From NCBI GenBank assembly GCA_977020255.1, contig CDROCS010001060.1, forward strand, positions 186,001-249,099: a stretch of 63,099 nucleotides of DNA, given 5' to 3'. The notes under the pieces were generated by a model. The model did not search any database, was not told where the DNA came from, and was given only the letters and a program-made list of their open reading frames with translations. Position numbers and translations under genes: made by a program. Positions within the stretch are counted from its first letter, which is position 1. Every line of letters begins with the position of its first letter. Source of the stretch: Obrimoposthia wandeli (taxonomy: Eukaryota). This document shows positions 2,583 through 59,480 of the stretch, in pieces.

Positions 2583-2628
2583 CAAAAACAAAACTATTTT
2601 GAGTCATCAAACCAGAAATACAATAAAA

Positions 2629-6204: not shown

Positions 6205-6256
6205 ATCTCCGACGGGAAAAAAGCCCGTTTCGCCCTTCCGGGCTCATCAGGGAGAT
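6205..6256 (-). ncRNA. Type I hammerhead ribozyme, antisense, in the partial A LTR (6012-6360)
   Basis: Minus strand: AUCUCC CUGAUGA GCCC-GGAA-GGGC GAAAC GGG-CUUUUUU-CCC GUC^GGAGAU. Complete core with stems I, II and III. Confidence 0.92.
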
Positions 6257-7133
6257 GGCTTGTTATTTCTAACTTCGCGGTGGATTCCGCGAAGCCGGAG
6301 ATAACAATAATAAAAAGCCAGGGAAAAGAGGGAAAGATTCCCCTTTCATGTGCCGACGAATAGGTGTGGGACTAACAAACGATTTAAAAGCTTTACGCCT
6401 ACAGAAATGGATGTTATTCAACATTGTTGATTTAGGAATATCTAAAATCATAAAATCAGAACTAAATCACAATCACCCAAATATTGGACTCGCCAACATG
6501 GTGCAGAAATACTTAAATGTAGAAACACAAAAAGGAGTCCACACTAGCATGGAAGATGCAAATCACACCCAAAAAATTTTCATAATGAAGGAGGAAATGT
6601 TGAATAAAGAGTTTGATTTGACCGAGGTGATGAATCCACCATCTAGCGAGAACAACCCAGTTCATCGTTCTCACATAAGACCAGAAATCCGGAGTCCGGT
6701 ACACAAAACTCCCCGATTTTGTTGGATTAAGGTAGTATTATTATTATTTTTATTCTGTTTTCATTCTTGTCTAAATTTTTAACGATTTTTAACCAGACAT
6801 GATTGTGATTAGTAAAACAGTGATCAGTTATAACATGCAAACAACACTAGTTAACAATAGAAACAAGACAAAATAGTTTTACTAATAATTAAGATAAAAA
6901 TTATAATTCTGAGGACAAAGACTTTTATGACCCGGAGGATTGTTGGGAAAATATTATAGCTGTTTATTTTGAAAAAGTAAAAATATAAATATATATATAA
7001 AAAATTAAAAAAAATAAAATAAAAAGTAAATAAGAATTAATTAACTAAAGAATTAATTAAGAACTTTCCTTAATTAGGGAAAAGTTCTATTTAGAAAATA
7101 TGTACTTTGGCATTTTAGTCTCAAGAGTGGTCA

Positions 7134-7185
7134 ATCTCCGACGGGAAAAAAGCCCGTTTCGCCCTGCCGGGCTCATCAGGGAGAT
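7134..7185 (-). ncRNA. Type I hammerhead ribozyme, antisense, in the A 3' LTR
   Basis: Minus strand: AUCUCC CUGAUGA GCCC-GGCA-GGGC GAAAC GGG-CUUUUUU-CCC GUC^GGAGAU. Predicted cut between 7140 and 7139. Confidence 0.93.
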
Positions 7186-7839
7186 GGCTTGTTATCTCTA
7201 ACTTCGCGGTGGATTCCGCGAAGCCAGAGATAACAATAATAAAAAGCCAGGGAAAAGAGGGAAAGATTCCCCTTTCATGTGCCGACGAATATCGTCGACA
7301 TGTGATGTTAGTGTGCGCAAGTGCACAATTCAACACACACACACTCACACAGCAGACATCACTCAACTCACTCACTTACTCACTCAACTTTCATACTCAC
7401 TCACACTCACTGCTCACTCACACACTCACTCGTTTTATCCCTTTATTTCTCCCCATGCACTCTCGTGTGTATGTGTGTTCCCAACTGCTGTTATCTCGAT
7501 ACGGATGTAGATAAATTGATATACATTTTCTCTCTCTGCCCAGATCCGCTGCCATCGGTGTATGTGTGCAGCAGTATTTCTTCTTGCAATTTCTGATTTG
7601 TCTAATCGTTTACCAGTGGAATTGAGGTTGTAGTGCAACTGATTGACTTGTTTTCTATAGTTTGAAGTGGAGCTTTAATTTTTTAAGATTCACATTCGAA
7701 CAAGATAGTCTAATTGGATTAAAAAACAGAAAAAGCTCTGGAAATTGCAACATCACTGTCAGCAGTTTGTTTGGATATTTAAGCTGCACACTGCTTACTA
7801 AAAGGCCAGTGGATAAAATTTGATACAAATATTTTTTGA

Positions 7840-20487: not shown

Positions 20488-22282
20488 ATGATATGTATTA
20501 TTACAAATATAATAAAACCAGTTAATGCCTTGGAAGCGTATGATTGCTCAAAATATAGTATTCAAAATAAATATTCCTTAATGGATTTACAACAATGTGC
20601 TGATGCCGACCCAAACGAAGTAAAAATCAAAACCACCAAGTTATTCCATGTATACCAGGAAACAGATTTCATAAATACAGAAGTTTACGAGTGTAGGGTA
20701 CACGTAGAAACATTCATAACATATTGCGGACAACACAGCCATAATTCAATTGTCAAACCTGCACTAGGAAAAATACCAATAATTGTCGATGCACTAAATT
20801 GTAAGGACGCTTTTGCAACAGGAGAACTAAGAATAGATAGAGAAATTAAAGTACGAGCAGTAAAAAATAAAATTATACAACAAATGATTACAGTAGTAGG
20901 AACAATAAAATCTGACGGTGCATGTACAACAGGCACATACGTTGTGATGGGAGTCAAACAAAGTGGTTTAGTAGTTATAAAAAACTTTGAAGTAGAACTA
21001 AGAACGTTCAAGGCAACATTTGACCCATCTACAAATAATATGGTAACTATGCCATTTTGCGAAGCAAATATAAGTCATTGCAATACAGGATCCTCAATTT
21101 TATATTATAAGGTAAAAACAGACCAATGTAAATTAATACTCCTAAAATCTGAAATTTTTCAAATAATTCAAGGTCAAAGATTTAAAGATGACCCGGAACT
21201 TGATCAAAGAGTGCCAAAAGATATACATAAAAAATATAGGACAAGAAAAATTCAAAAAACATCAACCCCAACTATTTTAATGTCAACAGAACAAGGTTCT
21301 GGAATGCGATTTATTAAAAAGAAAGAGGAATCCCGATATGGACACTCTATTTATACAACTAATTATAAAGGAATATATTTAAGTAAAGAAAAAATATATA
21401 ATGCAAAAACGACACCAACAAAGTTTGACATAAAAAATTACGATTATTTTAATAATAAATTAGATTATTTTTATCACAAAGGATTAATGACAATAGAAGC
21501 AATTTATACAGAAACGATAATGAATGACTGTAAATTAAACCAAGAAATTTTGAAAACAAAATTGGCAATTATTGCTACAAATCCAGAATTAATAACACCA
21601 TTATTACCACTAGCTGATGGTACTTTTGGAAGAGTAATGGGAGAAGTGCTATATACTTATCAATGTAAAAAAGTAATAGTTAATATAAGAAATCATAATA
21701 AATGCACTAAAGAATTACCAATTTCATACAAAAATCATTCATTATTCGTAGAACCAATCACCAAAATAATACTTTTAATACATACAGTATAAAGGAAATG
21801 AATTGTTCAAACATAATGGCACCTCATTATCAAATCTCAAAGGATATTTGAATATCACTCCCAAGAAGAGACATAGTTGCTCAACCATTAAAATTACAAT
21901 TAACTGACCTCAATAACGACATAGAAATAAAATCAGACAATGAACTAAATACAAAAGGTATATACATACAAGAAGACATAGACAAATTAAGAAAATACAT
22001 TTTATTTCCTCAAATTAGATCACGAATTTTAACACAAATAATTGAAAGATCAGTACCAAACGGAATTGGCCGTCCTGATTACGATTTATTACTTTCTCCA
22101 AATCATTTTATAAAAGCTACACAAAATACAATGTCAAAAATATGGGGAAAAGTTTTAATTTTTGGTCAAGCATTTTCTGGACTTGTGGGAATATATGCAT
22201 TGCTGATATGTTTTAAGATCCTTTTGAGTCAAATTTTATCTATATATTATATTTATAAAGTTGGTGGATTGACATGGAAACT
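20488..22282 (+). pseudogene. env: Chuvirus (Monjiviricetes)/gB-type class III fusion glycoprotein, env-like, B copy 1
   Basis: Signal peptide ...ICIITNIIKPVNA|LEAYDC; YECRVHVETFITYCGQHSH; YFNNKLDY...DCKL; GEVLYTYQC; KGIY..EDIDKLRKYILFP; C-terminal FGQAFSGLVGIY TM region. This pattern is recognised from chuviral G proteins. One frameshift near 21780 and one stop. Confidence 0.85.
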
Positions 22283-24150
22283 TTGTTGTGACGGTTGTAG
22301 CATGTGGTATTTGTTTTATGGTTGTTTCTTTGATATATTTCCTAATTGTAATTACTGACCATTGGCCACAAAAAATCGTAGGTTGATATAATTTGGATAT
22401 TTTATTTCCAAAAATCCTTAAGTTTGTTAGATTTCTACAAGTCTCAAATTGTTGTCCCCATTGTCTATACATTATTGGTTTGTTAGTATTTACACATTCT
22501 CTATAATCCATAATTATTTTTTCTGGATATCTTATATTTTTTATAGTTATATTTGTTCTGATTTGTGATTTTTCTAATTGTTTTTCTGCGTCTTTCCAAA
22601 AATGAGCATTATGTCCTCTATATCTAATTCTAATGAGGGCTTTATCTAAGTTATCTATTTTAAGTTGAAATTCCCAATTTATCATGATTTGATGTTTTGA
22701 TATATATTTTGCTGTCGTTTTTAATATTGAAGCTAAGTATAAGTGAGTTTCTATAATTCTTTCATAGAGTGTTATATTTTTTAATTTCGACTTAATTCTT
22801 ATTTTATATTGTGTTTCTGTTCTTAAAAATGGTATTGTATATTTTTGTGATTTTATTCCTGAAATAATTATATTTTGTTTTCTATCTGTTTGTGTGATTT
22901 GCACATTTCCTGTTTTGTTTGTAAGAAGAGAAATTTTTAACTTTATTGATGTGATTTCAGGTATTATTGTTATTAATCCAAAATTTTTTATGAGATGAGT
23001 TGTTGAGTCGTATTTATTTGTTTGTTGTTGTATGATTGATTGATTGTCATTTATGTTTGTTGCGTTTACTTTCAGTAGGTTATATTTTATTGTAAAATAT
23101 ATTACCAATAACATCATTATTTTACATATTTCTTTTATTGACATTTTTATTGTATTTCTAGTTTGATGACTCAAAATAGTGTTGTTTTGTTTTTGTGAGT
23201 TTTTTATAGTTAACATTTGTAGAACAGTATTATTGCTAGTTGATCTTAAGTTATATTTGTGACTTTTTACTTTTGTATTTTCTTCAGGTGTTTCTCGACA
23301 TCTGTTTATATGTGTTCTTATTTCTTTTGATTGTGGTTCATTGTCGAGTTTAGCTGTTATGTTAGTTCTGTTGGTACTAATGACTGTATATGGTCCTTTG
23401 TATGGTTTTGATAATTTGTGTGACAACTCTACATTAATTTGTGGATTGTGAATCATTACTTTACTTCGCTTTTTATATTTGATGGCTTAGTTCTTCTATT
23501 ATAATATTCTTTGTAATTTTCTTGTATATTTTTGACAAATAATTTAGCTTTTTCGAAAGCTAGTTTTATTATTTCTGTAATTTATATTTTATATTCAGGT
23601 TTTTCTAGGTACTGTGTAGTAGGTTGTAGTAATGTTAGGTCAATAGGCATTTGAGGATCTCTGAATAACATAAGGTAAAAATGTGTTTCTCCTGTAGATG
23701 CATGTACTGATGTTTTATATGCAAAAAGGCATGGAGGTATATGTAAATCCAATCTGTTTGGTTGTTGTTTGTGTATGATGCCATCATATCTTCGAGGGTT
23801 CTATTAAATCTTTCTACTAATCCGTCGGTTTGAGGGTGATATGGTGTTGTATTGATCTTTTTTATGTGATAAATTTCAGCTATTGACGCTAATACATTAT
23901 TTATAAATTCAGGATTTTTTTCGGTTAATAATTTTCGGGATGCACCGAAAGTAAAAAAAAAATTCGACTAAAACCTCCGCAATGGTTTCAGCCTTATGAT
24001 CATGTGTTGGAAAAGCCTCTGGCCATCTTGTAAAATAATCAGAGAAAACTATTATATATCGATTTCCTCGGGGTGTTTCAGGTAATGGCCCCATTACATC
24101 CATGACAACAGTTTCCATTTTGGCTGATGGATACGGTATTGGTTTTAAAA
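22283..24150 (-). mobile_element. Element C copy 1, 5'-side fragment: integrase core and C-terminus running into the FN3 ORF
   Basis: ORF 22236-23456 reads KPYKGPYTVI...HKYNLRS and continues without a stop into the signal peptide and FN3 repeats. ORF 23909-24265 contains VMDVMGP. There is no 5' LTR; the fragment abuts a kinesin exon at about 24150. Confidence 0.88.
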
Positions 24151-40420: not shown

Positions 40421-41300
40421 TGTTGGGCAAGAATCTGAATAAATAAACTTTCAAAATTGTTAAGATGTTAATTGACAATTGTTGGGCAAGAATCTGAATA
40501 ACTAAATTTCCAAATATTTTATTATTATATCAACGTGTTAAAGATGCCCGGATTACACAAAATCAAAAGAAAAATTTTCTCCAAGTGATATTTTTGTCAC
40601 TGTTATCATAAAATCCAACTGTTTTATACATTAACTTCTTTCGGTTTTTCGATTCTGATCGGTTGTGCCATGTTCACGTCAGTTAATTGCAAGAAGTATT
40701 TGTGGGTAGATTTGCACACCAAAAATATCATAGAACAAAATTTGGGTAATATACAAACACACCCGTGTGAACACACACACACAAACATTGTAAAATCGAT
40801 GTGTCAAGGAAACTACTGAAATAATTGTGCCATGCATTATTGGATTTGGTTTGCCACACTGGAACCGATCGAGGAGGATTGAACCTGACGTCACATCCAG
40901 AGATAACTCCACTAAATGTCAGGAGATTGTAACGTTTTGACGTTCATCAAAGTGCATTCAGAATGCACTGTCCGAGAGTGTGTGTATGCGTGAATGATGA
41001 TGATGACGTTGCTGATGATGTCGATGATGATGGTGATATTGCTGATGCTGTTGTTGTTTCTGGATGATGATGATGCCTCTCCGGATGACGATGTAGGAAG
41101 GTGGAGGAGAGAGGCTGCTGTTACTGGGCGGTAAATCTTTGGCGATCAAAACCGCTTATCTAGCCGCCTCCCTGACGAGCCTGGCAAGGCGAAACGGGGT
41201 TATTACCCTGTCGGAGGCTGATAATGAATACCTCCCTGATTGTGGACACCTCAGTAAAATGTCAATTTAAATTGACAAAAGTTAATTTTAAATCCCAACA
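40421..41300 (-). repeat. 3' LTR of element C, copy 2
   Basis: TGTTGGG...CCCAACA ends; near-identical to 12340-13222. Confidence 0.78.
41166..41218 (+). ncRNA. Type I hammerhead ribozyme, antisense to element C copy 2
   Basis: GCCUCC CUGACGA GCCU-GGCA-AGGC GAAAC GGGG-UUAUUA-CCCU GUC^GGAGGC. Confidence 0.92.
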
Positions 41301-43819
41301 ATCCTATGGGGGTAAACAAAGTTAGATCTCTGACGTTTTAAAAACAAAAATAAAAATAATGTCCCGTTTAGTATATAGCTGTCCAACGTGACTTCCACAA
41401 AAATAAATTACTCGAGTCTGTTAATGTAAAGATAAAATATAAAATTTTGATTTTACACTTTTCATATCCACAAGCAATAAGACATTTAATGAATGATGCA
41501 TAGTAAAATATTTTACTACTCTAAATGCTGTCCTCATAATCAGTTGAGCAAAGGTCCATGACCTCAGGAAGGCTAGTATTGGCAATGCAGGGGAGAGAGA
41601 CCGTCAGTCCACATTCTTCTATAAGTTCTTGCTCTCTATGGAGGAAAATGTTTCGGGTCCATTGTGTGTATGAGGCTAGAGTGGGTATCCTTTTGTATTT
41701 CCTTATTGAAATACCACGAGACCATTCGAGCGAGTCCAGCTTGTTCTCTACGATTGATCTCTAATCGAATAGTATGTGTTGCTCCTAGATCCACCGTCTG
41801 CGAAAAATCGTTTTTCTGTAGTCCTAAAACCTTGAGGTTGTTGGTTATTCCCGTTCCTACGAAAATGTTGTCTTTTAGCAAGGACTGAACGCGTTGTAAC
41901 ACTTCGACAGAATCAGGTTGGTTTCTTAACTTACGTTCGTTGAGGCCTTTTATTCTTGTCACATAATTCCTGATTCTGTCTCTGCTATTGCATTTTGTAT
42001 CCAAAACGATTTGTCCAATTTTGTTCATTATAGTAATGCTGGCTAGGGTGGGTTGTTTGTTCATTTTTACTACCATTTCACAATCGACAAAAAATATTTG
42101 AGGATTGTTGTGATATTCAAATGGCAGACTTGAACGGGACTAGGTCGCACAATTTGTTCTATGAATAATATGTTATGTCCACCCGACAAACAAATCATCA
42201 AATCGGGAGTTATTTGATGTCTCATCAACCGGTAAGAGTGGTTTTGTAGGAGAATGCTTGCTTTTCTTGTGTTTTAAAAATCCACAGCCTTTTGCTACGT
42301 GAATCTCAATGTCCGTGCAAGTAGATAAAAATTTCATCAACTCAAACAGTCTGTTCTGTTGGCTTTTTGCTATTTTTGTTGAGAATTATGCTCTGTCTAG
42401 GGGTGTCTCTTAATTTGATGCTATTTGAAAGCTGGGTCTGATTGTCAAAAATCTTTATTCCGTAATGGTTATGGAAATACCTTGTTCCAAACTACCTTAT
42501 TTTTCCATAAAGGAACTTAGCCATTTTTGGACGTTATTCTGCTAACTAGACTGACTTCTCTCTCTTACCCTGCGGCACAACCTGCCAGTTTAAATAAGGA
42601 TTTGTACTTGTGGGTTCCATCTGTAGGGTATACAGATATAGTAAAAAAAAATTGATTTTACATGCAAATATAAAATTTGTCAATGTTTATAAAATGAAAT
42701 GTTCGTGTCAAATTTTTTTTTCTCTTTTTGTTTATCAAAAGTCTGTAAATCATTTTAGTTTTTTGATGTAACAAGCTCAATCAAACAGGTATATAAATAA
42801 GATATAATTTTTTCATTCTTTACTACATATTCTTGTTACATCTATTATCAATATCAATATATACATATCTATATAAATATATTCGTTTTTATTTATTCCT
42901 AATTTTTATTATGACACTTTAACTAAAGTTAATGAATATTAATACCCATTCATAAACATATTTCCTTTCCAAATCATGCCATAAGCTCAAACTAATTCTC
43001 AATTTTCTTTTAATTTATATTTTAATTTACTCACTGTGGATTTTACTAATTTTCACACCCGAAATCATCACTTTCTCCCGGTTGAAATCCCATTAAACGA
43101 TTAATTACTGATCTCAATGATACAAGAGAGTTTAACGCTTCTCTGAGTCGTCGTACTAATAATTCCTGATTTGTTTGGCTATGTTCTAATCTTCCATTTG
43201 CAACGTCAAAAGCATTATTCATTCGCTCACATTCCATTTCCTTGTCTTTCAAATGCGATCGCAGATTTATATTTTCTTACAATAATTTATTTTCCCATTT
43301 CTTCTGTCTCTTATATCTTCTTTTATTATTTTGTACTATTTTTTAATTTCTCATTTCTAAAATGTTAATAAGTTTTGAGTTCATTTTTACTATTTTCAAT
43401 TTAAACTAAACACATACGCACTTTTCTTCATTAACATTATAATTACTTTATTTTATGATTAGCTTTTATTTTAGTATGTCAATTCGTGTTTTTACTTGTA
43501 TGAAAATTTTATAAAGATTTTTCTCTTTTCTTCTTATTATTCTCAATTATTGTATTTATTGATATGTTAGATGAGTTTGAAGAGCTAGGTATGATAGATG
43601 TTATAAATGGCCCAGGAGGTTTCTACAATTTGTCCGATAATGTTTTTTGAAAATTGTGTTATTTTTTACTTTAATGACTTTCCATGTTATTTTTATGATT
43701 AATGTAAAGATTTCAATTATTATGATTGTTACAAAAATTTTCTTGTTATTTATATTTTTTGAGTATTTTTGTTTATTAAAGTGTATTTTTAGACTTTCAT
43801 TAAATGATTTATATGGTAT

Positions 43820-45141
43820 TGTTGGGATATTAATTAAAAGAATTAATTGTTAATTTTTTAAGTCAATTTAAATTGACATTTAATATTTATCCTAAAATGC
43901 CCACAATTAGGGAGGAGAATTCAAATTCAGCCTCCGACGAGGTGGTCCCGTTTCACCCTTTTTACCGGAAGCTCATCAAGAAGGCGGCTTGATAACCAGA
44001 TTCAACACAACGATTTTCCAGCACAGCAATAGCAGCAGACGCGGCGGCGGTCTGCCCTTTCTCAGCCAGCGACAAGTCTGATCCAGCTCCTCCACCATCC
44101 TTCCCCCGTATTCCCCGTCATCCTAATCGGCAGGCTGAACAGCGGTATTTCTGACTAAACATGATGACACTATCGTGCACAGACCCCGATTCGTCTAGCC
44201 CAGAACGAGATGGCCCATTCAACAGACTAGTATCCCAACACATACATCATTGTCTCCCACAAAATTTATCTTCCTTCCGACTGACAATTTTCTCTTTCTT
44301 TCTCTCCCAGTTTGTATGGTGACATCTGTATTTATGTGTGTGTACAAAATTTGTGATATCACGATTTTGAGCGATACATTTTGTGTGTGTGTACGAGCAG
44401 GGATTTCAGCAATAACAACAGCATCATCAGCAACATCATCATCATCGGCATCGTCAATATCATCAGCATTTGTGCCAGTGTGCTGTCTTTCGCACAGACA
44501 CACATTGCAGTCTATCAATCTATGCCACAGCTGCAACATGCACTTTCCGCGATACTGCGATCCACCGTATCTCCCTACTTATCAATCTCCCTCTTTCCAC
44601 ACAGACCATCCTAACCAGCAGCATGTCAGTGTCAGGATGACCACCATCGCACTGGGTCAGTTTCAAAGTCCCCTCCTTCTGTAGATTCATCTCCGTATGT
44701 CAAGTGATTGAGATCTCCACAGTCATCATTGGTTATTGGAAGCGAATTTCAGTTTTGTCTGTCGTTCAGTGTGCGTGTGTTCAATCAAGGAATTTAACTA
44801 TATGTGTGTGCTGTGATTTTCGCTGTGGTTAGAGGAGACAGTGTTTGTCTGCGTGTTTGATCATCGATCGGTAAAATTATGCACAGCAGTTTTGTTTTCC
44901 TCTGACATATAAACAGAATGATTTCTGTGAAGCTTAACACACAAAAATATACAACATTTCAACCTGTTAAAAAATTGAATTATTATTCAAAATATATTTT
45001 CTCTGGAACTTATTAACAATTAAACAAAAACAAGTATTTGAACCTATTCAAAAGATATTTTCCATGGAACTTATTAACAATTAAATCAAAGACAAGTATT
45101 TGAACCTATTCAAAAGATATTTTCCCTGGAATTTTATAACA
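43820..45141 (+). repeat. 5' LTR of element B copy 2
   Basis: TGTTGGG...TTTATAACA followed by AT TGGTGAGCTCGAC. Confidence 0.88.
43930..43985 (-). ncRNA. Degenerate hammerhead ribozyme in the B copy 2 5' LTR
   Basis: Minus strand reads UUGAUGA instead of CUGAUGA and stem II is disrupted. Probably inactive, or a sequencing error. Confidence 0.55.
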
Positions 45142-46849
45142 ATTGGTGAGCTCGACTAAGAGCACAGAAACAAGAATAGAATTGCAGGTCATATTTTATT
45201 CTTTTATTTTATTTATGATATTTTATTTGATAAATTTGTATATTTACCTAATTTTTTTTTTATTATTTACTCATTGTATTTATCATAATTACATTTAATT
45301 TAAGAGTTTACATAACTCCGGATTAACATCTATTTATTATTGCTTTTAATTGATATATTACGTTTAATTTACGATTTTTTTTACATTTAATCAGTATCTA
45401 CATATACATAAAAACTTTATTTACTGAGTAGTTGTCATATATACAGTTGATTTAAGATTTTATTTACTTTGATTTTGTGGATACCATTTGTGTTTATTGG
45501 AGGATTAGAGATTTCGTTTACATTTTTTACTATCGTTTACTTATATATTGAATATTTTTATTTTTACTTAACGATTATATTTGTCATTTTTAAATTTCCA
45601 CTATAATTGAGGTGTTTGCAGCTTTGCGCACAAGCCTCGTAGGTCCAAAATACATTTTCATAATTTTCATATAGTTGAGGTGTTTGCAGCTTTGCGCACA
45701 AGCCTCGTAAGATTAAAAATAATTTTGTTTCCTGATACATAGTCGGGTCTTGTTCTCTAATTTTCTTTTATAATTTGAATTGTGTTGATCATTTTAATCG
45801 TAAAAGTTATAGAAAAATAATTTATTGGTTTTCGGAGTTCTGTTCACATAAAGGCTAAACACTGGCTGTTGTCGGATAGAGTTTTGAACACTGACAAATA
45901 TATTAAAAAATAATCAACAAACGAAGCACAACTCAAATACAAAAAAATTGGAGAAAATTTTAAAATTTTTCTTTTGAACTGGTTTACCAGTAAAGATTCG
46001 TTTTTTGAGAACTATAAATTGGAGTGGATTTATCTATTAGAGGCGTAAAAGTAAAATAAAAAACTAAAAAGATAATAAAAGTTAAAATAATCATATAAAT
46101 ATATTTTTGTATAAAAAATAAAATTGATCATAAAATTTTGTCGCAAATTGTCTTGTTTCCCAAGTTACGTCGAGTGCTATCATATAAAGACTATATACTG
46201 GTTGGCCGTGGTAGTGCTCAAAGTGATAAGGGACAGAGATTATTGAGATAAATTTTTGAGTCTTGTTATTGTACTAAAAAATTAAAAAACAAAATAAAAT
46301 AAAACTTCGGAAATATAAATTTTCTCCAGAGATTTTCAGAGAGCGTGTTTTTAATATTGATAAGAGAGTTTGATTTTGAGATTGACTAAATAACTTTTAC
46401 GAATTTCACCGAAATATTTTTAGTTTCAGTACGCAGTACGCATTTTTCATTTTTCGCAATATTTGATTTTGAAACTTTAAATAAATTACTAATAACACAA
46501 ACCCAAAGATCTATCACAAAAATAGACACACAAAATAAGTAAACAAAAACGTAGCGCTAGCCTTCACTGGAGAAGAATTCAAACAAGATTAGTTAGGACA
46601 GACTCCAGTGATAAAACGATTCAAAGACCCAAATCACAAATCAGTTTTACAACAAATAACGATTTACTTACACAGACTTCTCCACTCTCAGAACATCTGG
46701 ACCTAACATTAACCTCAGATACAGAGAGTTTACCTTCACCACAAACATCTGACTCGGATAGTTCGTCAGAGATAACAGAAGCAGTAACCGTACCAGAACC
46801 ACCTATTGTACAAATAAACAACGAACAAATAATCGATCAACCTCAAATA

Positions 46850-48160
46850 ATGGCTGAACATAAATTAAATGTTCCTTTAGACGCTTTCAATGGCGATAAA
46901 TCTTCACTACCCGAATTTTTAAATAGATTTGATTCATTTGCTCAGGCATTTGAATGGACTAATGTAGAGAAACTTAGGGTTTTTCCGGCGTATTTAAAGG
47001 GCACTGCCTTAACAATTTATAGAGGATTAAATAATGAACAGAAAGACACATGGGACCATTTAGTTCAGAATTTTCAAAATATGATTTTAGGAGCACAGTC
47101 TGAACAAAATTACCTTAACCAATTTAGGCAACGTGAACAACATTTGGAGAACCCACAGTATTTTTGAGTTGAATTACGAAGATTAGCCTTAAAATCATTT
47201 CCCGGAATTGAGGAAGTCTTAAGAGAACGTTTGCTCCCTACATCAATTTCTATATGGGCTAAACAGTAAAATAAAAAATCGCAGCACTACTAGAAGTAGA
47301 AAATTTTCAGCAAGCTGTAAATAAGGCTCAACTTGTAGAAACAGAATAAGCATGTTACAACAATCTGAAGTTTTAGCATTAACCTTTGAAAAATACAAGA
47401 CCAACAACACCACCAAATTTCAATCAAACTCAAAACTATAACCCAAATACACAATCTAATTACCAAAGCTAACAACAATATACACCACCGACAAATAACT
47501 TTTATAGAAATCAAACAAACAGAAACTATACAGACTCACAAATTACACAAAGATCTTTCCAAAAATATACAAATTGTGGACTGCAAATCACACAATAAGA
47601 ATTGTTGTAAAATAACCAACAACAAATTTTGTAGATTTTGTAAAAAAGACAATCATACTATTGAAACTTGCCGAAAATTGTTATACAGACAAGGTAATAA
47701 TATAAGACCACAAAATAATAACTTTAACAATCCTAATAATAATTTCAAAAATACAAATAGTAATTTTAGAAGCCCATATAATAATTTCAATAATCAAAAT
47801 AATCAAGCTAAATATTTTTAATACTAATACAAAATTTTGTAAGAATTTGTAATATAAAAATCACAATACTGATGAATGTAGCAAACTAAATACAATGATG
47901 AACCAATTTGGTAACACAACAATAAAACAACAACAACCACAACCACAGAGTCAAAAAACAGTACAGTTTAACAATCAAAATCAACAATATGCTTACAGAA
48001 ACCCAATACATACTATTGAAAACACTGATATAACTCAGAAACGAAAGAAGTTGCATTGATGAGATTAAGGCAACAAGAAATAGATAATCGCTACAAAGAA
48101 ACACATCAGCGTACCAAAACAATGAACAAAACACAAATAGTACCAACTCTCAATCTGAAT
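46850..48160 (+). pseudogene. gag: gag of element B copy 2 (multiple frameshifts)
   Basis: Near-identical to 18955-20273. Confidence 0.88.
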
Positions 48161-48399
48161 TCGGAGAAATATCTAAAAAGGGTTGTCTAACATTAGAAAA
48201 GAACACAAATAAGTACAAAAAATAAATCAAACCACTCAAACACAAGATACAAAATCGAAAATAAAAATAAACGAAAAACACCAAAAAAATAGTAAGAAGT
48301 CAACTCTTAAAAATACATATAATTTTAACAAAATCATCCAGAATTTATGGAAAAATAATTCAAATAATATTATGATATGTATTATTACAAATATAATAA

Positions 48400-50925
48400 A
48401 ACCAGTTAATGCCTTGGAAGCGTATGATTGCTCAAATCGCAAGTATTCAAATAAACTATTACTTAATGGATTTACAACAATGTGCTAATTGCCGACCCAA
48501 ACGAAGTAAAAAATCAAAACCACCAAGTTATTCCGTGTATACCAGGGAAACAGATTTCATAAATACAGAAGTTTACGAGTGTAGAATTTTGCAGCAAAAC
48601 ATTCATAACATATTGCGGACAACACAGCCATAATTCAATTGTCAAACCTGCACTAGGAAAAATACCAATAATTGTCGATGTACTAAATTGTAAGGACGCT
48701 TTTGCAACAGGAGAACTAAGAATAGATAGAGAAATTAAAGTACGAGCAGTAAAAAATAAAATTATACAACAAATGATTACAGTAGTAGGAACAATAAAAT
48801 CTGACGGTGCATGTACAACAGGCACATACGTTGTGATGGGGTCAAACAAAGTGGTTTAGTAGTTATAAAAAACTTTTGAAGTAGAACTGAAACGTTCAAG
48901 GCAACATTTGACCCATCTACAAATAATATGGTAACTATGCCATTTTGCGAAGCAAATATAGGTCATTGCAATACAGGATCCTCAATTTTATATTATAAGG
49001 TAAAATCAGACCAATGTAAATTAATACTCCTAAAATCTGAAATTTTTCAAATAATTCAAGGTCAAAGATTTAAAGATGACCCGGAACTTGATCAAAGAGT
49101 ACCAAAAGATATACATAAAAAATATAGGACAAGAAAAATTCAAAAAACATCAACCCCAACTATTTTAATGTCAACAGAACAAGGTTCTGGAATGCGATTT
49201 ATTAAAAAGAACGAGGAATCCCGATGTGGACACTCTATTTATACAACTAATTATAAAGGAATATATTTAAGTAAAGAAAAAATATATAATGCAAAAACGA
49301 CACCAACAAAGTTTGACATAAAAAATTACGATTATTTTAATAATAAATTAGATTATTTTTATCACAAAGGATTAATGACAATAGAAGCAATTTATACAGA
49401 AACGATAATGAATGACTGTAAATTAAACCAAGAAATTTTGAAAACAAAATTGGCAATTATTGCTACAAATCCAGAATTAATAACACCATTATTACCGCTA
49501 GCTGATGGTACTTTTGGAAGAGTAATGGGAGAAGTGCTATATACTTATCAATGTAAAAAAGTAATAGTTAATATAAGAAATCATAATAAATGCACTAAAG
49601 AATTACCAATTTCATACAAAAATCATTCATTATTCGTAGAACCAATCACCAGAATAATACTTTTTAATACATTCAGTATAAAGGAAATGAATTGTTCAAA
49701 CATAATGGCACCTCATTATCAAATCTCAACGGATATTTGGATATCACTCCCAAGAAGAGACATAGTTGCTCAACCATTAAAATTACAATTAACTGACCTC
49801 AATAACGACATAGAAATAAAATCAGACAATGAACTAAATACAAAAGGTATATACATACAAGAAGACATAGACAAATTAAGAAAATACATTTTATTTCCTC
49901 AAATTAGATCACGAATTTTAACACAAATAATTGAAAGATCAGTACCAAACGGAATTGGCCGTCCTGATTACGATTTATTACTTTCTCCAAATCATTTTAT
50001 AAAAGCTACACAAAATACAATGTCAAAAATATAGGGAAAAGTTTTAATTTTTGGTCAAGCATTTTCTGGACTTGTGGGAATATATGCATTGCTGATATGT
50101 TTTAAGATCCTTTTGAGTCAAATTTTATCTATATATTATATTTATAAAGTTGGTGGATTGACATGGAAACTAATTTTAGGATGTTTTCCATTTTTGGCAA
50201 AATTTCTTATATTTAACCATCATCAAAATACAGTGAATGCATTATCGAACGAAATGCGAGAAACAAATTTACAAAAAATAGTAGACAATAAAAATAAAGA
50301 GAATACAGAATCTGCACAATACCCCGATTTAGAAAGATATAAAGAAGAAATAATAGTTCAAAAATCAACTGCACCAACAATATATACTATAAATCAAATG
50401 GATAATGATAGACGACCTTATGTAAAAGTTGAAATAAATGAGTACAAATTAAAAGCTTTAATTGACACAGGATCAAGCGTAACAGTTTTGGACAAGTCTT
50501 TCTTAAAACCACACCAAATATTACTACTTCTCACAGATAATAGTCGAATAACAGCAGCAAACGGTCAACCCGTAAATTTTATTGGTAAATTAGATTGCAT
50601 TTTTAAAATAGGAGATAAATTTATAAAAATACCTACTAGAATAATGAAAAATTGTCCATGCCAGATGATTATAGGAATAGATACATTAAGGAAATTAGGA
50701 AACAATTTTCATTTCGACTTCGAGAAAAATCAAATTAAAGACATTTACAGACCAAACGCTAAAAGCAAATACGAATTGGAAATAAAAGGAGATATCATCC
50801 TTCAACCTAGAGCAAAAACAATATTACAATTAGAAACTAACATAGTTACAGAAAAAGACATCTTATTCGAACCTTATAAATATCAACAAGAAACACTAAA
50901 TTACGTTCTACCATATAATTTGTAA
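48400..50925 (+). pseudogene. env: env-like glycoprotein continuing in frame into an aspartic protease, B copy 2
   Basis: ORFs 48928-50034 and 50074-50925 are in the same frame, separated by a TAG that is TGG (Trp) in copy 1. After the TM region comes RPYVKVEIN...ALIDTGSSVTVL...IIGIDTL, a retropepsin signature. Confidence 0.88.
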
Positions 50926-53705
50926 ATAAAAAATAATACAATACCAATTAGAATACTAAATGGAGACATAAGCAGATTCATCTAAAAGTAGGAACACGCC
51001 TTGGAAAAATAAGTGTTATAGCCGAAAATATAAAATTAGTTAATAATGAAAAAATAGAAGACAATTCCACTGTAAAATTTGAAAATATTAGATTAAATAA
51101 TTATGAGAAATCAAACTAAAATCATTGATGGAGAAATATGACGTAATTTTTGCAAAAAATGAATATGAACTTGGACGAACAGATTTAATTAAACATAACC
51201 TTCCGTTAACTATTAATACAGCAATCAAACCAACAACCTTACCGTATCCCATACGCTTACAGAGAAAAGAAGCTCAAAAGACAGGTAAAAGGAATGTTAG
51301 AGAATAAAATCATAGTAAGAAGTTTTCAGCATGGACATCTCCAGTTGTTTTGATAAAAAAGAAAGATGGTTCACTAAGATTTTGCGTAGATTACAGAAAA
51401 ATTAAACGAGATCACATAAAGACCGCATATCCACTTCAAGAATTGATGAAATCTTGGATAAACTAAAAATGCAAAAAATATTTACAACTATAGATTTACA
51501 CAAAGTGGATATTGGCAGATAGAAATAGATGAATCAGATAAAGAAAAAACTGCATTCTCAACAGGAGAAGGATTATACGAATTTAATGTTTTACCTTTTG
51601 GATTAACAGGTGCTCCAGCAACATTTCAGAATTAAGCATGAACCACATTTTGATGGACGCCGATCATGAAAGCACAGCCCCGAGAAGTCTATATCGACGA
51701 TATTCTAATTTTTTCAAAAAATTTTTGAAGAAACACTTAAAGATTTGAAAATGTATTTCTTAGATTGAAAATAGCAGGTTTTAAAATTAAAACCAAAAAA
51801 GTGTGAATGGATGAAAATTAGACAAAGTGAAGATTATCTGGAGTGCATTATCTGCAAAAGGAATTCAACCAGATGAAAGTAATATAGAAAAATAAAAGAA
51901 TTTTCCAATCCCAAAAACAGTAAAAATATATAAAATTTTTTAGGACTTGCAGGATATTATCGTAGATTTATCCAAGCTTTTGCACAAAATAGCAACACCA
52001 TTAAACAAACTTATTAAAAAGGATGAAAAATTTGAATGGGAAACGGAACAACAAGAGTCATACGAATACTTAAAACAAAAATTGATTGAAAAAACCTATA
52101 TTGAGATATCCTAATTTCAACAACTTGTTTCTAGTAATGACTGACGCAAGTGGATATGCGTTAGGAGCAGTACTAGGACAACAAGATAATAACGAAAAAG
52201 ATCATGTGATAGCTTACGCAAGCAGAGTCTTAAAAAACACAAATAAATTATTCAACAATAGAAGAGAATGCCTCGCTATTTGTTTTTTCGCAATGGAACA
52301 TTTTAAACATTACTTATTAGGTCGAAAAGTTCACGTTTATACTGATCAAAGACCATTACAGTGGCTACTAAATCATAAAGATACAACATCTAGATTAATG
52401 AGATGGGCGTTAATTCTCAAAAATATGATATTGAAATTCAGCTATGAAAAAGGTAAATCAAATGCCAATGCAGATTGCCTATCTAGAATAAGAAAAGAAA
52501 TGTCTGTATTCAATAACTTCACCGAATTAAATATTTTTTACAATAATCAAGGCTCGATATGATGATAAAGTAATCACCGATCTTCAAAGCAAAAATACGG
52601 AATTACAACAAATAATTAAATTACATCACCATCAATCAAGTTCCAACAGATGAAAATTAAATATTCAAAAATTCATGAATCTCGTTATAAATTCAGTAAC
52701 AATATTTACATTTATTTAAACGATAAAAATCATGCTACTGATTATACCTAAAGAAATACGTACAAAATTACTCTTCAATATCCTTTGGAGCTTTAGGAGG
52801 ACATCCCTAACAAAGAACACATTGGTCAGTTAAAATATTATTGATTGATATGAAAGAAGATGTAAAAAAATTGGTGTAATACTTGTGAAATATGTCTTAA
52901 AAGAAAAAACACTTTACGTACCACAAAGATACCATTAAAATAATACCGTATCCATCATTACATGGAAACTGTTGCCATGAGATGTAATGGGGCCATTACC
53001 TGAAACACTAGAAATCGATAGGCTAGTATTTTCAGATTATTTTACAAGATGGCCAGATTCCCAACACATGATCATAAGGCTGGAAAACTGCATCGCGAAG
53101 GTTTTGGTCAGAAAAATTATTTTACTTTCGGTGCACCCGAAAATTATTAACCAACAAGGTCTAATTTATAAATAATGTATATTAGCATCAATAGCTGAAA
53201 TCTCATAAAAGATCAATACAACACCATATCACCCTCAAATCGACGGATTAGTAGAAAGATTTAATAGAACCTTCGAAGATATGATGGCATCATACACAAA
53301 CAACAACCAAACAGATTGGGATTTACACATACCCCCATGCCTTTTTGCATATAGAACATCAGTACATGCATCTACAGGAGAAACACCTTTTTACCTTATG
53401 TTCCTCAGAGATCCTCAAATGCCTATTGATCTAATTTATTTCAACCTACTACACGGTACCTACAGAAATACCTGAATACAAAAATAGAAATTAGAAAAAA
53501 GAATAAAACTAGCATTTGAAAAAGCTAAATTATTTGTAAAAAACATACAAGAAAATTACAAAGAATATTATGATAGAAGAACTCAACCATCAAATATAAA
53601 AATCGGAACTAAAGTAATGATTCACAATCCACAAATCAATGTAGGATTATCACACAAATTATCAAAACCATACAAAGGACCATATACAGTCATTAGTACC
53701 AACAT
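50926..53705 (+). pseudogene. pol: RT, RNase H and integrase of B copy 2 (many indels, low-quality sequence)
   Basis: Colinear with A pol 1-2420; TDASGYALGAVL, YIDD-region remnants and the GPY motif KPYKGPYTVI. Confidence 0.88.
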
Positions 53706-56145
53706 AACTAACACATAACTAATAATCGAAACCTGCACATTAATCATAAAAATAACATGGAAGATCATTAAAGTAAAAAATAATACAATTTTCAAAAATC
53801 ATTAATATCGGATAAAGTATTGGCCGATCACCTATTGCTGTGACCTTCATCATTCCTAGCTCTTCAAACTTTCATCTAACGTACCAATAAATACAATAAT
53901 CGAGAATAATAAAGAAAATACGAAAAATCTTTATATTGTCTCAGAAATACATAAAATGAAATACTAAAATAAAAATAATCCTCAAAAATAAAGTATTCAT
54001 AATGTAGATAAAGGAAAGTGCGTATGTGTTTAGTTTAAATAGAAGATAGTAAAAAAATAAACTTAAAAACTTATTAACATTTTAGAAAATGAGAAATTCA
54101 AAATTAATTATGAGAATAATAGAAGAATATATAAGAGACAGAAGAAATGGAAAATAAGGTGTTGATAGAAAATATAAATTTGAGATCGCATTTGAAGACA
54201 AAGAAAATGGAATGTGAACGAATGAATAATGCTTTTGACGTTGCAATTGAAAGATTAGAACATAGCCAAACAAAACAGGAATTATTATTTTGACGACTCA
54301 GAGAAGCATTAAACTCTCTCGTATCATTGAGATCAGTAATTAATCGTTTGATGGGATTCAACCGGAGAAAGTGATGATTCCGGGTGTGAAAAATTAGTAA
54401 AATCCCCAGTGAGTAAATTAAAATATAAAAGAAAGAAAATTGAGAATGAGTTTGGGCTCATGGCATGTTTTGGAGAGGAAATGCGTTTTTCAATGGTATT
54501 AATATTCATTAACTTTAGTTGAAATAGTAATAATAAAATTAAGAATAGGTAAAAAATGAATATATTAGTATAGATATGTATATATTGATATTGATAACAC
54601 CAGTAATAAAGATATATATTAAAGAATGAAAAAATCCATATCTTTATTTATATACCTTGTTTGTTTAATCTTGTTACATAAAAAAGACTAAAATGATTTA
54701 CAGACTTTTGATTAACAAAAAGACAAATAAACCCAACAGGGTATTTTCATTTGATAGACAGTTGACAATTTTTATATTTGCATGTAAAAATCAACATTTT
54801 TTACCATCTGTATACCCTACAGATGGAAACCACAAGCACGAATCCTCACATTTGACCTGGCAGATGGGGCCGGAGGGGATGATAGAGAAGACAGTACAAT
54901 TAGCAGAACAACGTCAAGAAATAGCAAAAATCGCAATGTTCCTTTAATGCAAAAGAAGGCAGCTTGGAACAAGGTATATCCATAACCATAACGTAATAAA
55001 GCTTTTTGACAATCAGACACAGCTTCCAAATAGCATCAAGTTAAAGAGACACTTCAAGACAAGCATAATTCTCAACATAAATAGTAAAAAGCCAACAGAA
55101 CAAAGACTGTTTGAGTTGATGAAAATTCTTACCTACATGCACGGACATTGAGATTCACGTAGCAAAAGGCCGTGGATTTTTAAAAAACACAAGAAAATCA
55201 AACATTTCTCTGTCCTTCTCCCCTGCAAAACCACTCTTACCGGTTGATGAGACATCAAATAACTCCCGATTTTGATGATTCGTTTTTTCAGGTGGAAATA
55301 ACATATTTTCATGGAGCAAAATATGCGACCTAATCCCGTTCAAGTCTGCCATTTGAATATCATTCCCAACAATCCTCAAATATTTTTGTCTATTGTGAAA
55401 TGGTAGTAAAGATGAACAAACAACCCACCCTAGCCAGCGTACAATAATGAATAGAAGCGGACAGATCGTTTTGGATACGAAATGCAATAACAAGAGACAG
55501 AATCAGGAATTATGTGACAAGAATAACGGGCCTTAATGAACGGAAGTTAAGAAACCAACTGATTCTGTCGAAGTGTTAGGAGCTGTGTCAATCCTTGCTG
55601 AGACCATCTTACCAGCGGGGCCAGAATAGCCATGATCTCAAAGTTTTGATTCCCAGAAAGAGCAATTTTCGCACGATTAAAGAATCTAAGGGCCTTCAAT
55701 ATTAATTGAAATCAGACCCGCCAAAATAATAGAACCCATCAAATGGTTTCCATTAATCCTTCCATCAAAAATAAAAATACCACTCCGGCATTCTTTTGAT
55801 TGTTAACGATTTAAAAACATTTCCTCCATAAAGCAAAGCTAATAAAGTGGGCTGAGTCTCACCCTACATGCAAGTAATGAAGCCTATCCCAAGTTGCAAA
55901 CCTTTATCCTCAGTTCTGAAGACCAACAGCTTCATCAACTTGAGATCAGCTTGCTGTCTATACCGTTCACTAAATGTATTGTTGCGTAGATGTAAAGATG
56001 TAAGAAATCAATGTTTTAGCTGTCATTAAAATTCATGGGCTCAAGTAGGTACGCATGAAAAGTCCACGTTTCGATATTTCTCTTTTCAACCAGGACCATT
56101 TTCTTTGCGGAAAAAGTCAGGTTCGACTTTTATTTCCCCCTGGAT

Positions 56146-57573
56146 TATTTGGGATGTAATCAAAAAGAGCCATTTTCATTTTCCGAAGATAATTCAAATT
56201 CAATGTTTTAATATTACTATCCAAAATACACAATTAGGAAGATTAATTACCAGCCTCGGCAGGGTGGTCGTTCGCCTTATGGCTCGCTGAAAAACTGGCA
56301 GTCATAGTCCCTTCGTGATTTGCCGCCAATGGCATAACATGATAAAGCGGCGGTGCCTATAATGGCAGCCGATCCAGATTGCTCCTCCACCATGTTGTGT
56401 TCCCATCATCCTCGTCAGCGGGCTGAACAACGTGACTTCCAGCTAACGCGGAATGGCCTATGTTTTGAAACACGAGAACCATTATTGGGCGGTACATTTG
56501 CGCTCATCATTCATTGTTCATGCGCCACACTTATCGTATCTCTAAAATTATTATTCTTTAAGCTGACCATTCTCTTTCTCTCTTGTGCGTTGCAACATTC
56601 CTGAAGATGCGATGGGTTTGGGCGATACATTTTGTGTGTGTGTGACCGGATTTCGCCAGCAGCAGCATCATCAGCAACATCATCATCGCAGCGCCAATCA
56701 ATATCAATAGCCTTCTTTTGGTGCATATCTTTCGCACAGGCCCTGCGGTCATCAATCATACACTTCTGCCTTGCGACTACGAGTCTTGTATCTGCTGCCG
56801 CTCAATCTCATGCTTTTCACTGGATATCGCCCTTCGAGCATGTCAGTGTCAGGATGACCACCATCATGCTGGGTCCAGTTTTTAAGGGTCCCTCCTTCTG
56901 TGGAATTCATCTCCGTATATTAAGTGATTGAGATCTCCACAGTCATCATTGGTTATTGAGCATTTAGTTTTGTCTACAATACAATTCAGTGTACGTGTTC
57001 AAATCGAGAAATTCAACTATATATGTAGTATGCTGATTCTGTGGTTGAGATAAGTGTTGTCTACATCTAACAGATCCAGTCATCAGTCAGTAAAATTCTA
57101 CTGACGGTTTGTTTTCCTCTGACATATAAACAGCATGGATTTCATAAGAAGCACTTTGTCTGCTTATTTAAGCCTAGTTTAAAAAATTAGATGTTCTTTA
57201 AAATCAGCACCTGAGACTTATTCATAATTCGACAGTAAGTGTTTGATTTCTACTAACAAAAAGATATTTTATCAGAACTTCTTCAACAATTCTAAGCAAA
57301 ATAAGTGTTTGAATATATTTAAAGAATCTTTATAGGACTTGCCTTCTTGATCGCCAAAATGATATTTGGTTCTATTTCAAAATGTTTTCTAGAACTTATA
57401 GCAATTAAACAAGACAAGTCTTTGAACCTATTTAAAATCTTTCCATAGAACCTTCAACATTCATTAAAGATAAGTGTTAGACCTATTTAAGATGTTTCCT
57501 AGGACTTATTAATTAAACGAAGCTTGAGTAACGGTTTCTTCTTAAGAAATGTTTATCTCACAGACTTACTAAC
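56146..57573 (+). repeat. 3' LTR of element B copy 2 (error-rich)
   Basis: Clear matches to the B LTR (catgtcagtgtcaggatgaccaccatc, gtgattgagatctccacagtcatcattggttattg, gacatataaacagcatg). Preceded by a cccc-tggat tract like C's. Confidence 0.7.
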
Positions 57574-59480
57574 GTTGTTTCTTCTATTTATTTTAATTTT
57601 TAACAACTAATTTTGTGATTTTCTGTGATGTTAATTTGGTTTGATTCTAAGTCTTTGTTGTAATGGTTCATGGCATATGGGTATTTGTTTTTATGATTAA
57701 TTTTCTTTGATATATTTCCTAGTATGTTCTTGTTATTATTTTAATCGTGGGATTAAATCTCGTTTGGATCTTCTTTAAAATCATAAGTTTATTGAATTTC
57801 TACCGGTCTAAATTCTTTGTCTACTTCATCTATACATTTATTGGTTCATTAGTATTACACATTCTCTATAATCCACAAAATTATTTTTTCTGGATATTAT
57901 ATTTTTTATAGTTATATTTGTTCTGGTTATGATTTTCTAATTGTTTTCGTCTTTTAATATGACTTTTTGTCTTATCTCGTTCTAATAGAGGAAGCTTTAT
58001 CTTAATTATCAACATGGGTTAAAATTTAATTATCGCTAGTTTGATGTTTTATTATATGTTCACTGTCATTTTAATATTGAAGCTAAAGTATAAGTGAGTT
58101 TCTATAATTCACTTATGAATGTTCTCTTCTTTAATTCATTTTACTCTGTTTATATTGTGTTTCTGTTTTCATACGTAAGTGTTCTCGTTTTTAATTTTGC
58201 TTATCTTCTTCTTCTAAATTTTTCGAAATTTCGATTTCTTTTAATTCTTCCTAATTTTTTTATAAAAGTAGTCTTTTAACTTTTCTTCAGTGTGATTTTA
58301 GGTATTATTGTAATTAGGTCCAAAATCTTGTGAGATGTATTTGTTGATCATGTTCTTCTTTTCATGTTTAATAATTAGTTATTTAGGTTCTACATGTTGC
58401 ACATTAGCGAAGGTTTTTTGTAAAAATATATTGCCATACTTATATTCATTTGCACCTTTCTTATTTCTTCAGCCTTTTTATTGTATTTCGGTTTGATGAC
58501 TCAAAAATAAGGTGTTGTTTTCATTTTTATTAAGGTTTTTATAGTTCTATTAACACTTACAAACCAATATATATTACTGAAATGGATCTTGATTCTCTTT
58601 GACTTTTTACTTTTGTATTTCTTCAGGGTGTTTCTCGACATCATTTATATGTGTTCATATTTCTTTTGATTAATAGCAACATTAAAGGTTTAACAATATA
58701 TTGGTTTCTGTTGGTGCTAATGATAACATGTGGTCCAGCTGTATGGTTTTGATATAATTTTGTGTATGACCTGCGACTCTACATTAATTTGGTTGTGAAT
58801 CATTACTTTACTTTAGCTTTTTATGTTTGATCGCTTGGATTCTTCTAGCCTTAATATTCTTTACTTAATTTTCTTGTATCTTTTTTGACTTAAATAGTTT
58901 TGTTCGCTTTTAAAGCTAGTTTTATTATTCTCATAATTTATATTTTATATTCAGGTTTTCTAGGTACTATGTAGTAGGGTTTGTAGTAATGTTAGTTCAA
59001 TAGGCATTGAGGATCTCGGAATAACGCAAAAATTAAAAATGTGTTTCTCACCTGTAATTATGTACTGATGTTTTATATACGGCATAGAGTGTCTACAAAT
59101 ATAAATATGTTTGGTTATTGTTTTATGTATGATGCCATCATATCTTTGAAAGTTATATTAAATCTTTCTACTAATCAAATAGGTTTGAGGGTGATATTAG
59201 TTGTTTTATTATTGATCTTTTTTTATGTAAATAAATTTGACTATTATTTCAACGTATTTATAAAATTCTAAGTTTTTTCAGTTTCTTTTCAGGATGCAAT
59301 TTGTTTTGCATTCTCATCAAATATCATAATGGTTTCAGCCTATAGTCACTTTATTTGGAAAACTTATATAAATAAAGTGAAAGCTATTATATATCAGTTT
59401 CCTCAGGTGCTTTTGAGTGGCATTTACCATCAGCCATGGTTTCATTTGGCTCAATCTGATTTTAGTGTTGGTTTCAAAGT
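57574..59480 (-). mobile_element. Element C copy 2, FN3-integrase fragment (error-rich)
   Basis: Noisy duplicate of 22283-24150, extending about 100 bp further toward the B insertion site. Confidence 0.7.

Follow-up and report, generated by a model that had tools for sequence, protein, structure and literature searches.

Flatworm Gypsy elements with an envelope gene between gag and pol have already been published. Smed_errantivirus_1-4 are multi-copy elements with a Gypsy pol and a class III (HSV/gB-type) env between gag and pol, their listed spans being 14.5-14.9 kb (PMC13524379), and Burro/GYPSM1 encodes env in frame between gag and pol within a huge open reading frame (ORF), with a mononegavirus-like fusogen and accessory cargo (PMC6431247). 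Here we describe a family sharing this gag-env-pol backbone that was met in 63,099 nucleotides of Obrimoposthia wandeli (contig CDROCS010001060.1, positions 186,001 to 249,099; "the window" hereafter means this whole stretch). To that backbone the family adds a hammerhead ribozyme motif in the long terminal repeats (LTRs), on the strand opposite to the genes, a putative fibronectin type III (FN3) membrane protein behind integrase, and a 3'-terminal ORF (ORF3) for a DEDDh-type exonuclease. Burro exceeds 30 kb and carries BIR, MATH, ankyrin, BCL2 and dUTPase cargo (PMC6431247), whereas young copies here are ~15 kb, and BIR, MATH, ankyrin and BCL2 were not found by Pfam in the gag-to-integrase frame or the 3' ORFs. 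An LTR hammerhead, an FN3 tail and a DEDDh ORF go unmentioned for Burro in the available text of PMC6431247, as do an exonuclease, a ribozyme and fibronectin in the main text of PMC13524379, whose Smed rows give neither an LTR nor a primer site. One env motif, six residues long, of the window family has Smed_errantivirus_1 as its sole row in the available env supplement of the latter paper; the likeness to the Smed elements in env was judged by eye and from this one motif, and would suggest a host of planarian type.

Each of the additions has a partial counterpart elsewhere. The rotifer elements Juno and Vesta carry an exonuclease ORF between pol and the 3' LTR that is common to unrelated mobile elements (PMC5408684, PMC6431247), but the rotifer ORF3 is an RNase D-like DEDDy enzyme for which the available text of PMC5408684 reports no departure from neutrality and mentions no LTR-element hammerhead, whereas ORF3 here is a REX4/ISG20-like DEDDh enzyme with its own N-terminal domain. 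Terminons combine exonuclease, coiled-coil and transmembrane (TM) ORFs with a hammerhead, but they are Penelope-like, not Gypsy (PMC6431247). Hammerheads are known within the terminal repeats of plant LTR retrozymes, of animal retrozymes (where they are type I) and of Penelope-like elements, in the pseudo-LTRs (pLTRs) of the latter (PMC4918200, PMC7229834, PMC3088659, 10.64898/2026.07.22.740005). Plant retrozymes are non-coding and non-autonomous, have type III ribozymes on the strand that accumulates, and resemble autonomous Gypsy elements in two end boxes only (PMC4918200); the elements here, in contrast, are coding, and their ribozyme lies opposite to both the genes and the primer site. In the open literature, with Repbase, subscription journals, the original Burro paper and bioRxiv supplements lying outside the search, we found no autonomous Gypsy element reported to have an antisense hammerhead in its LTR or an ORF3-type REX4-like exonuclease, and no report of an FN3 membrane protein fused behind integrase.

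Because the locus in the window proved to be a poor specimen, the whole family was studied, and its anatomy is well supported. The elements form an enveloped, errantivirus-like family of Gypsy LTR retrotransposons that has amplified recently. Their LTRs are bounded by TG...CA, and the domain order is protease, reverse transcriptase (RT), RNase H (RH) and integrase (IN), as in Ty3/Gypsy (Metaviridae). LTR matches in young copies span 1.0-1.5 kb, the two LTRs being 98.1-99.9% identical in all eight pairs compared; two of those eight copies, and one copy of the lineage to which element A of the window belongs, have clear 4-bp target duplications. The primer site is that of tRNA-Trp. ARAGORN and Rfam detected no tRNA at the loci first tried, which carry only 3' halves, and an array of six tRNA-Trp genes with a 207-bp tandem unit is present at G000:C5734:143000-144500. 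A dispersed tRNA-Trp 3' half (L128) terminates in an encoded CCA. Only a short purine run, and no long polypurine tract, precedes the 3' LTR (junctions L013-L030, L049). First-look candidates for the exonuclease queries numbered 4,086 and 5,619 genome-wide; 150 and 106 of them were scored, and these were mostly stop-free frames. Among the lineage-B copies fetched, a ribozyme follows ORF3 in 10/10 and a second lies upstream of gag in 8/10; one follows ORF3 at six of eight lineage-A loci. Counted by eye, the 100 ribozyme matches listed include 16 same-strand pairs 12.6-13.9 kb apart, from which we would extrapolate, very roughly, to some 1,000 two-LTR copies in this AT-rich genome of 1.35 Gb. 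Read contigs from four runs (one sample, kind of library unspecified) covered all 30 bins, and no clear splice joint was seen among the 15 joints listed of 34 in the contigs of those runs. Their summed depth was highest in the ribozyme bin, but depth of this kind cannot rank parts and was given no weight.

The LTR motif is a type I hammerhead with the core CUGANGA / GAAA / NUH and three stems, stem I being open, an assignment based on the core motif and covariation. It occurs in both LTRs, antisense to the genes, with the cut site ~90-200 nt from the LTR left end. Exact matches to the core plus stem II number 6,227 genome-wide and 0 in the control, and 30/30 unselected matches were antisense beside an LTR left end, that end being found by a 7-mer with one mismatch allowed. 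Across 30 sequences pairing was kept in 98.3% of cells, and four pairs were changed on both sides; 18 further distinct sequences fitted to the model showed five such pairs, and compensatory changes were seen in all three stems. At one stem I pair, U-G replaces C-G in 13/30 sequences; this pair works on the antisense strand only, which argues that the antisense strand is the one selected. The unpaired catalytic bases are invariant save N7, which may be T, C or A, and one C3 change. Genome-wide, just 77 copies have G5 changed; the last stem II base differs in 166, a G-U pair being the usual result. A three-pair GCC/GGC match between loop II and stem I, a candidate tertiary contact, was kept in 95.5% of cells, with no compensatory change. 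Mean identity among 11 LTRs was 0.78 in the ribozyme and 0.64-0.69 in the adjoining LTR end, against 0.53-0.58 in the LTR interior and 0.52-0.54 in shuffled sequence. The partial conservation of that LTR end, together with the atypically short polypurine tract, could suggest that the motif matters only as a sense-strand or DNA structure, in integration or strand transfer; alternatively it could be a passenger from a Penelope pLTR or a retrozyme, since hammerheads of Penelope-like elements and of animal retrozymes are typically type I (PMC7229834, 10.64898/2026.07.22.740005). Against this stand the near-constant catalytic bases, the G-U pairs that fit only the antisense strand and the compensatory changes in three stems, and we consider this explanation improbable.

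We would give about an even chance to the reading that this is an enveloped Gypsy family with three separately useful additions, in which the ribozyme cuts antisense read-through. The hammerhead, by its position, strand and pattern of conservation, would act in cis on antisense RNA: a transcript entering the LTR from its right side, whether it began in a host gene, in a small-RNA precursor locus or at a bidirectional LTR promoter, would be cut ~100 nt before leaving the LTR, and a cut at the 3' LTR would separate the capped part from the RNA that copies the internal genes. RNA ends with a 5'-OH are unsuited to loading by PIWI proteins, and the detached antisense piece, which would bear such an end, would be a poor source of PIWI-interacting RNA (piRNA) or double-stranded RNA (dsRNA). 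An anti-silencing role of the ribozyme is plausible. It may be added that planarian transposon piRNAs are mostly antisense, LTR elements and Polintons being their clearest targets (PMC8532177), a pattern that fits the proposed cutting of antisense RNA. More specifically, the ribozyme might be a built-in escape from the piRNA trap, with the swappable exonuclease, which is shared with Polintons, trimming host small RNAs in trans and the FN3 protein partnering the fusogen in cell targeting, but this fuller account is offered tentatively.

The ribozyme might instead make something. Its cut at ~+90-200, with TATA-like sites in the LTRs at +822/+969 and +1089, could set the defined 3' end of a U3-antisense RNA of ~0.7-1 kb made from a bidirectional LTR promoter, or it could yield monomers or circles from tandem LTR units, with a regulatory or decoy function. 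In element A a 930-nt unit that includes one ribozyme is repeated in tandem (5431-7291), two same-strand matches 808 nt apart occur among those listed, and plant LTR retrozymes and animal retrozymes form circles likewise (PMC4918200, PMC7229834). However, the U3 interiors of the LTR types are no more alike than shuffled sequence, and the 100 matches listed hold, by eye, a single pair less than 1 kb apart against the 16 at element length, so that a dedicated product seems unlikely. The original prediction had allowed that the two LTR ribozymes release a unit-length antisense RNA, which would be ~13.5 kb, that circularises. A same-strand motif in both LTRs, 12.6-13.9 kb apart, is what this requires, but two copies follow from LTR duplication alone; in 17/17 copies the 2.5-4 kb downstream of the cut contain 3-10 antisense AATAAA sites, and an antisense circle would have no usable primer site in an element without an RNA-dependent RNA polymerase. 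We think this very unlikely. The same low standing is given to cleavage as the start of cap-independent translation of an antisense protein, a role reported for type I hammerheads in the 5' untranslated regions (UTRs) of fungal RNA viruses (PMC13725137): antisense ATG ORFs of at least 60 amino acids (aa) differ between the lineages and reach a maximum of 108 aa, no ORF near the cut is shared in this comparison, and those of lineage B start at least 2 kb downstream, past several AATAAA sites.

ORF3 has a family-specific N-terminal domain and an intact DEDDh site (D-x-E, D, H-x4-D) in all three of its types. The original prediction had likened the enzyme to arenavirus NP and coronavirus nsp14, but the nearest solved structures are ISG20, ISG20L2, SDN1 and PAN2 (E 9e-6 to 1e-3, catalytic residues aligned); these were the four PDB matches at E up to 0.01, and none was viral. 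ORF3 shares the DEDDh catalytic residues with these cellular enzymes and REX4, whereas the element enzymes add the N-terminal domain and, with their metagenome homologues, group apart from REX4-like proteins with a support of 100 in a tree made by a quick method, midpoint-rooted, from 74 of 79 rows. A word-based protein search with ORF3 gave 0 matches among 1,478 candidates, the family being found by a full HMMER search, and a viral contig scan yielded no relative. The three types, only 36-43% identical, sit on closely related pol genes. Note that two copies (L119-L122; G000:C264, C192) are 96% identical to lineage B in RT and 98-100% in RH, whereas their ORF3 is only 37% identical; ORF3 is exchanged as a module.

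The original prediction also held that ribozyme and exonuclease are parts of one kit, the exonuclease clearing the ribozyme products or dsRNA. ORF3 does lie directly upstream of the 3' LTR, and an antisense ribozyme occurs just downstream in nine of the 12 best divergent exonuclease loci. The other three have none, and at one of them (G000:C2378:55000-94999) the exonuclease relative stands among pPolB, integrase, A32 ATPase, capsid-like, TBP-like and phosphatase genes and is probable Polinton cargo. Relatives from metagenomes keep the exonuclease with no ribozyme detected. The nearest structures, moreover, are single-strand nucleases, and ISG20 has no reported dsRNA activity in the available text of PMC9157404. 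Because the exonuclease occurs among Polinton genes with no nearby hammerhead, and the protein cassette in two metagenome Gypsy elements with none found, we do not regard the parts as one coupled kit. The 5' products of a hammerhead end in a cyclic phosphate, which blocks most DEDD enzymes and makes them poor substrates. A kit coupled in this way is therefore doubtful. On the reading we prefer, ORF3, with its intact residues, selection and swapping, would be a single-strand RNA exonuclease that acts in trans, independently of the ribozyme, probably on host small RNAs or on the ends of element RNA. L085-L087 were considered as a host source gene and rejected; L087 lies among Polinton genes, and the neighbours of L085 and L086 are only phosphatase, RING, kinase or hAT.

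The family frame order is gag, env (class III), protease, RT, RH, IN, then a signal, two FN3 domains and a TM segment, followed by a coiled-coil ORF and the DEDDh ORF. Open frames run over 2,246 aa from gag to integrase and over 748 and 683 aa from integrase to the tail, in different copies, so that continuity from gag to tail is pieced together. The same layout is seen in two metagenome elements, each a single frame (3,012 and 3,207 aa) truncated at the 5' end, with coiled-coil-like and DEDDh ORFs after the long frame; single frames of metagenome relatives range over 3,012-4,057 aa. The viral fusogen that the original prediction placed in element B was confirmed (PF24664, E 9e-45). By hydropathy, a signal-Env-TM unit precedes the protease and a signal-ectodomain-TM unit follows integrase, and a signal-ectodomain tail follows the GPY motif of integrase in 7/11 long env-bearing polyproteins, six of them with a clear TM by hydropathy; three of the remaining four stop before RT, and one is without the GPY motif used for cutting. 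The predicted fold of a metagenome ectodomain (pLDDT 80) has tandem FNIII proteins as its top Foldseek matches (E 2e-8), and the window's own ectodomain has an Atlas fn3 score of 0.93. Modelled on this metagenome homologue, the tail appears to be an FN3 type I membrane protein. One polyprotein would then thread the endoplasmic reticulum membrane twice, in the order Gag, signal, Env, TM, protease-RT-RH-IN, signal, two FN3 domains, stalk, TM and tail, and Env and the FN3 protein would be made one-to-one with Gag and Pol and probably stand together on the particle. We infer from this layout that the FN3 protein may be an adhesion or receptor-binding partner of the class III fusogen; an entry or adhesion protein reads better than the anti-silencing part first proposed. 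The metagenome relatives L083, L084 and P0168-P0175 have two to four protease-like motifs, some after integrase; in L084 a second signal-FN3-like-TM unit lies between proteases, and P0167 and P0168 carry ankyrin repeats.

Between lineages, dN/dS (the ratio of nonsynonymous to synonymous change) is 0.03-0.16 for gag, env and pol (env 0.09). The pol genes of A and B had been said to differ mostly at synonymous sites, and in cleaner copies elsewhere in the genome dN/dS between these lineages is indeed 0.05 for RT, 0.03 for RH and 0.09-0.15 for IN. Neutral evolution of the accessory ORFs, or their confinement to this locus, would have told against the original prediction; neither was seen. They belong to the genome-wide family, and between subfamilies dN/dS is 0.10 for the exonuclease and 0.32 for the ORF3 N-terminal domain, and the FN3 region and the coiled coil stand at 0.40 and 0.47.

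A number of observations weigh against the picture of three useful additions with a ribozyme that cuts antisense read-through. Young lineage-B copies have dN/dS of 1.27 in the FN3 region, 1.10 in the coiled coil and 1.01 in IN-N, values that rest on few changes and include decay and sequence errors, and every dN/dS value, here and above, pools non-independent pairs. Rfam hammerhead models are unmatched in the window and in the B LTR end, minimum-energy folding gives the full three-stem shape in only one of five antisense segments (z -0.01 to -2.07), and the count of pairs changed on both sides was matched by 75 and 79 of 500 shuffles, the sequences being related. No hammerhead was found, by Rfam or otherwise, in the two metagenome relatives that keep the protein cassette, one locus ending at about the LTR start and the other offering 3.1 kb; the ribozyme is therefore not needed across the clade. 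(A GC-rich island 3' of the exonuclease in L083, at 11780-11885, has a weak fold, z -1.95, and matches no ribozyme pattern tried.) As for the proposed function, the capped upstream piece would still be antisense to most of U3, and an antisense ribozyme should damage host transcripts too. The predicted fold of the genome's own tail is poor (pLDDT 33), Pfam fn3 is unmatched there, PDB profile matches to FN3 domains are weak (E 0.4-0.5), and whole-model TM-scores for the metagenome ectodomain are ~0.3.

Related LTR elements are nested in the window. Element B, on the forward strand, extends from 43820 to about 57570. Its 5' LTR (43820..45141, TG...CA) has a TATA-like site at ~+1089, on account of which the left part is probably U3. 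The type I hammerhead in this LTR (43920..43995, reverse strand, antisense) has its predicted cut after 43936, 116 nt from the LTR left end; it shows a UUGAUGA core and an altered stem II, whereas its duplicated counterpart at 15821-15890 is canonical. A primer binding site complementary to the 3' end of tRNA-Trp(CCA) follows at 45144..45156. The gag gene (46526..48165; weak Retrotrans_gag match) is broken in this copy, and env (48285..50325) encodes a class III fusogen of gB / Monjiviricetes type with an internal signal and TM, recognised from PF24664 and hydrophobic segments. Protease, RT, RH and integrase occupy 50407..53712, with many frameshifts from ~51 kb on. Beyond these lie remnants of the membrane-protein tail (53720..54050, TM and cytoplasmic part), of the coiled-coil ORF (54060..54359; 102 aa in a cleaner copy, the coiled coil being judged from the pattern of residues and from weak Pfam matches) and of ORF3 (54806..55860, right end approximate; N-terminal domain and DEDDh part), all on the forward strand, and the 3' LTR (56200..57573, ends approximate). 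The integrase match stops at 53712 and the coiled-coil ORF match starts at 54141, with a TM-region remnant between.

Elements A, B and C had been credited with one shared 3' order, from integrase through FN3/TM, coiled coil and DEDDh exonuclease to an LTR with a hammerhead. This holds for A and C and fails for B, in which the signal and FN3 domains are absent and the 3' LTR hammerhead (~56253-56300) is degenerate and was missed by the hammerhead model. The two LTRs of B are only 72-74% identical to each other, and a target-site duplication was not readable at its noisy 3' end. Compared with the best relative, the indel count is 0 per 700 nt at 49.4-50.8 kb and reaches 29-37 per 465-600 nt at 55.7-59.2 kb, whereas control elements showed 0-5 in the same comparison. 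Because this climb, steady over 50.8-59.2 kb, runs on past the element borders into the next element, and because transitions are about as frequent as transversions in the three worst bins, the 51-59 kb tract is probably unpolished assembly sequence, and the 3' defects of B may therefore not be real. That B might be an old, intact copy was considered and rejected, as young copies match its 5' half at 91-98% and the noise does not stop at the borders of the elements.

B was inserted, on the opposite strand, into the tail gene of element C and thereby split it. The 3' part of C (41156..43819, reverse strand) holds a TM remnant, the coiled-coil ORF (43049-43354), ORF3 (41524-42620) and the LTR, whose hammerhead at 41156-41228 is on the forward strand; the noisy integrase and FN3 region of C lies beyond B at 57829..59282 (reverse strand). 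The 3' half of element A (1..7476, forward strand) comprises RT, RH, IN, the tail (2629-3870), the coiled-coil ORF (4058-4444), ORF3 (4626-5801) and the LTR, with hammerheads opposite to its genes at 6195-6266 and 7124-7195. Its tandem duplication takes in the ORF3 end, 3' UTR and LTR start and holds the two ribozymes in register, and an antisense transcript of it could release a monomer. Overall, the window has eight type I hammerheads, and they are antisense in all three elements for which polarity was checked (A, B and C).

The segment at 11.1-22.3 kb is duplicated at 39.2-50.2 kb with 95-97% identity, and a clean reading of an integrase C-terminus, signal and FN3-like ectodomain is found at 22239..23486 (reverse strand) in the duplicated block. 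Arrays of 39-40-nt repeats lie at 7470-8100 and 33500-34330, upstream of TRAF-like genes and inside the duplicated block. The two TRAF-like genes, both on the forward strand (10021-11112 and 36244-39111), encode RING, TRAF zinc-finger and coiled-coil regions, the second also MATH. An LTR ribozyme lies ~2 kb 3' of each on the same strand as the gene, and gene read-through would therefore be cut there.

A polyprotein in which Pol is flanked by a fusogen and an FN3 membrane protein is an unusual retroelement layout, and the occurrence of one exonuclease family both in Gypsy elements and in a probable Polinton suggests that they share a host target. Known retroelement hammerheads process the element's own transcript or belong to non-autonomous circles, whereas one kept in thousands of LTRs of an autonomous, enveloped element, and facing away from its genes, points to a use not described in the literature searched. 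If the proposed reading is true, a transposon or retrovirus would here be using a ribozyme for counter-defence, something that we did not find in print: wherever a copy lay backward in a transcribed locus, the precursor would cut itself at the LTR before reaching the element genes. The trap model of transposon silencing could also be tested sharply on this family, since antisense RNA and piRNA should fall at one nucleotide.

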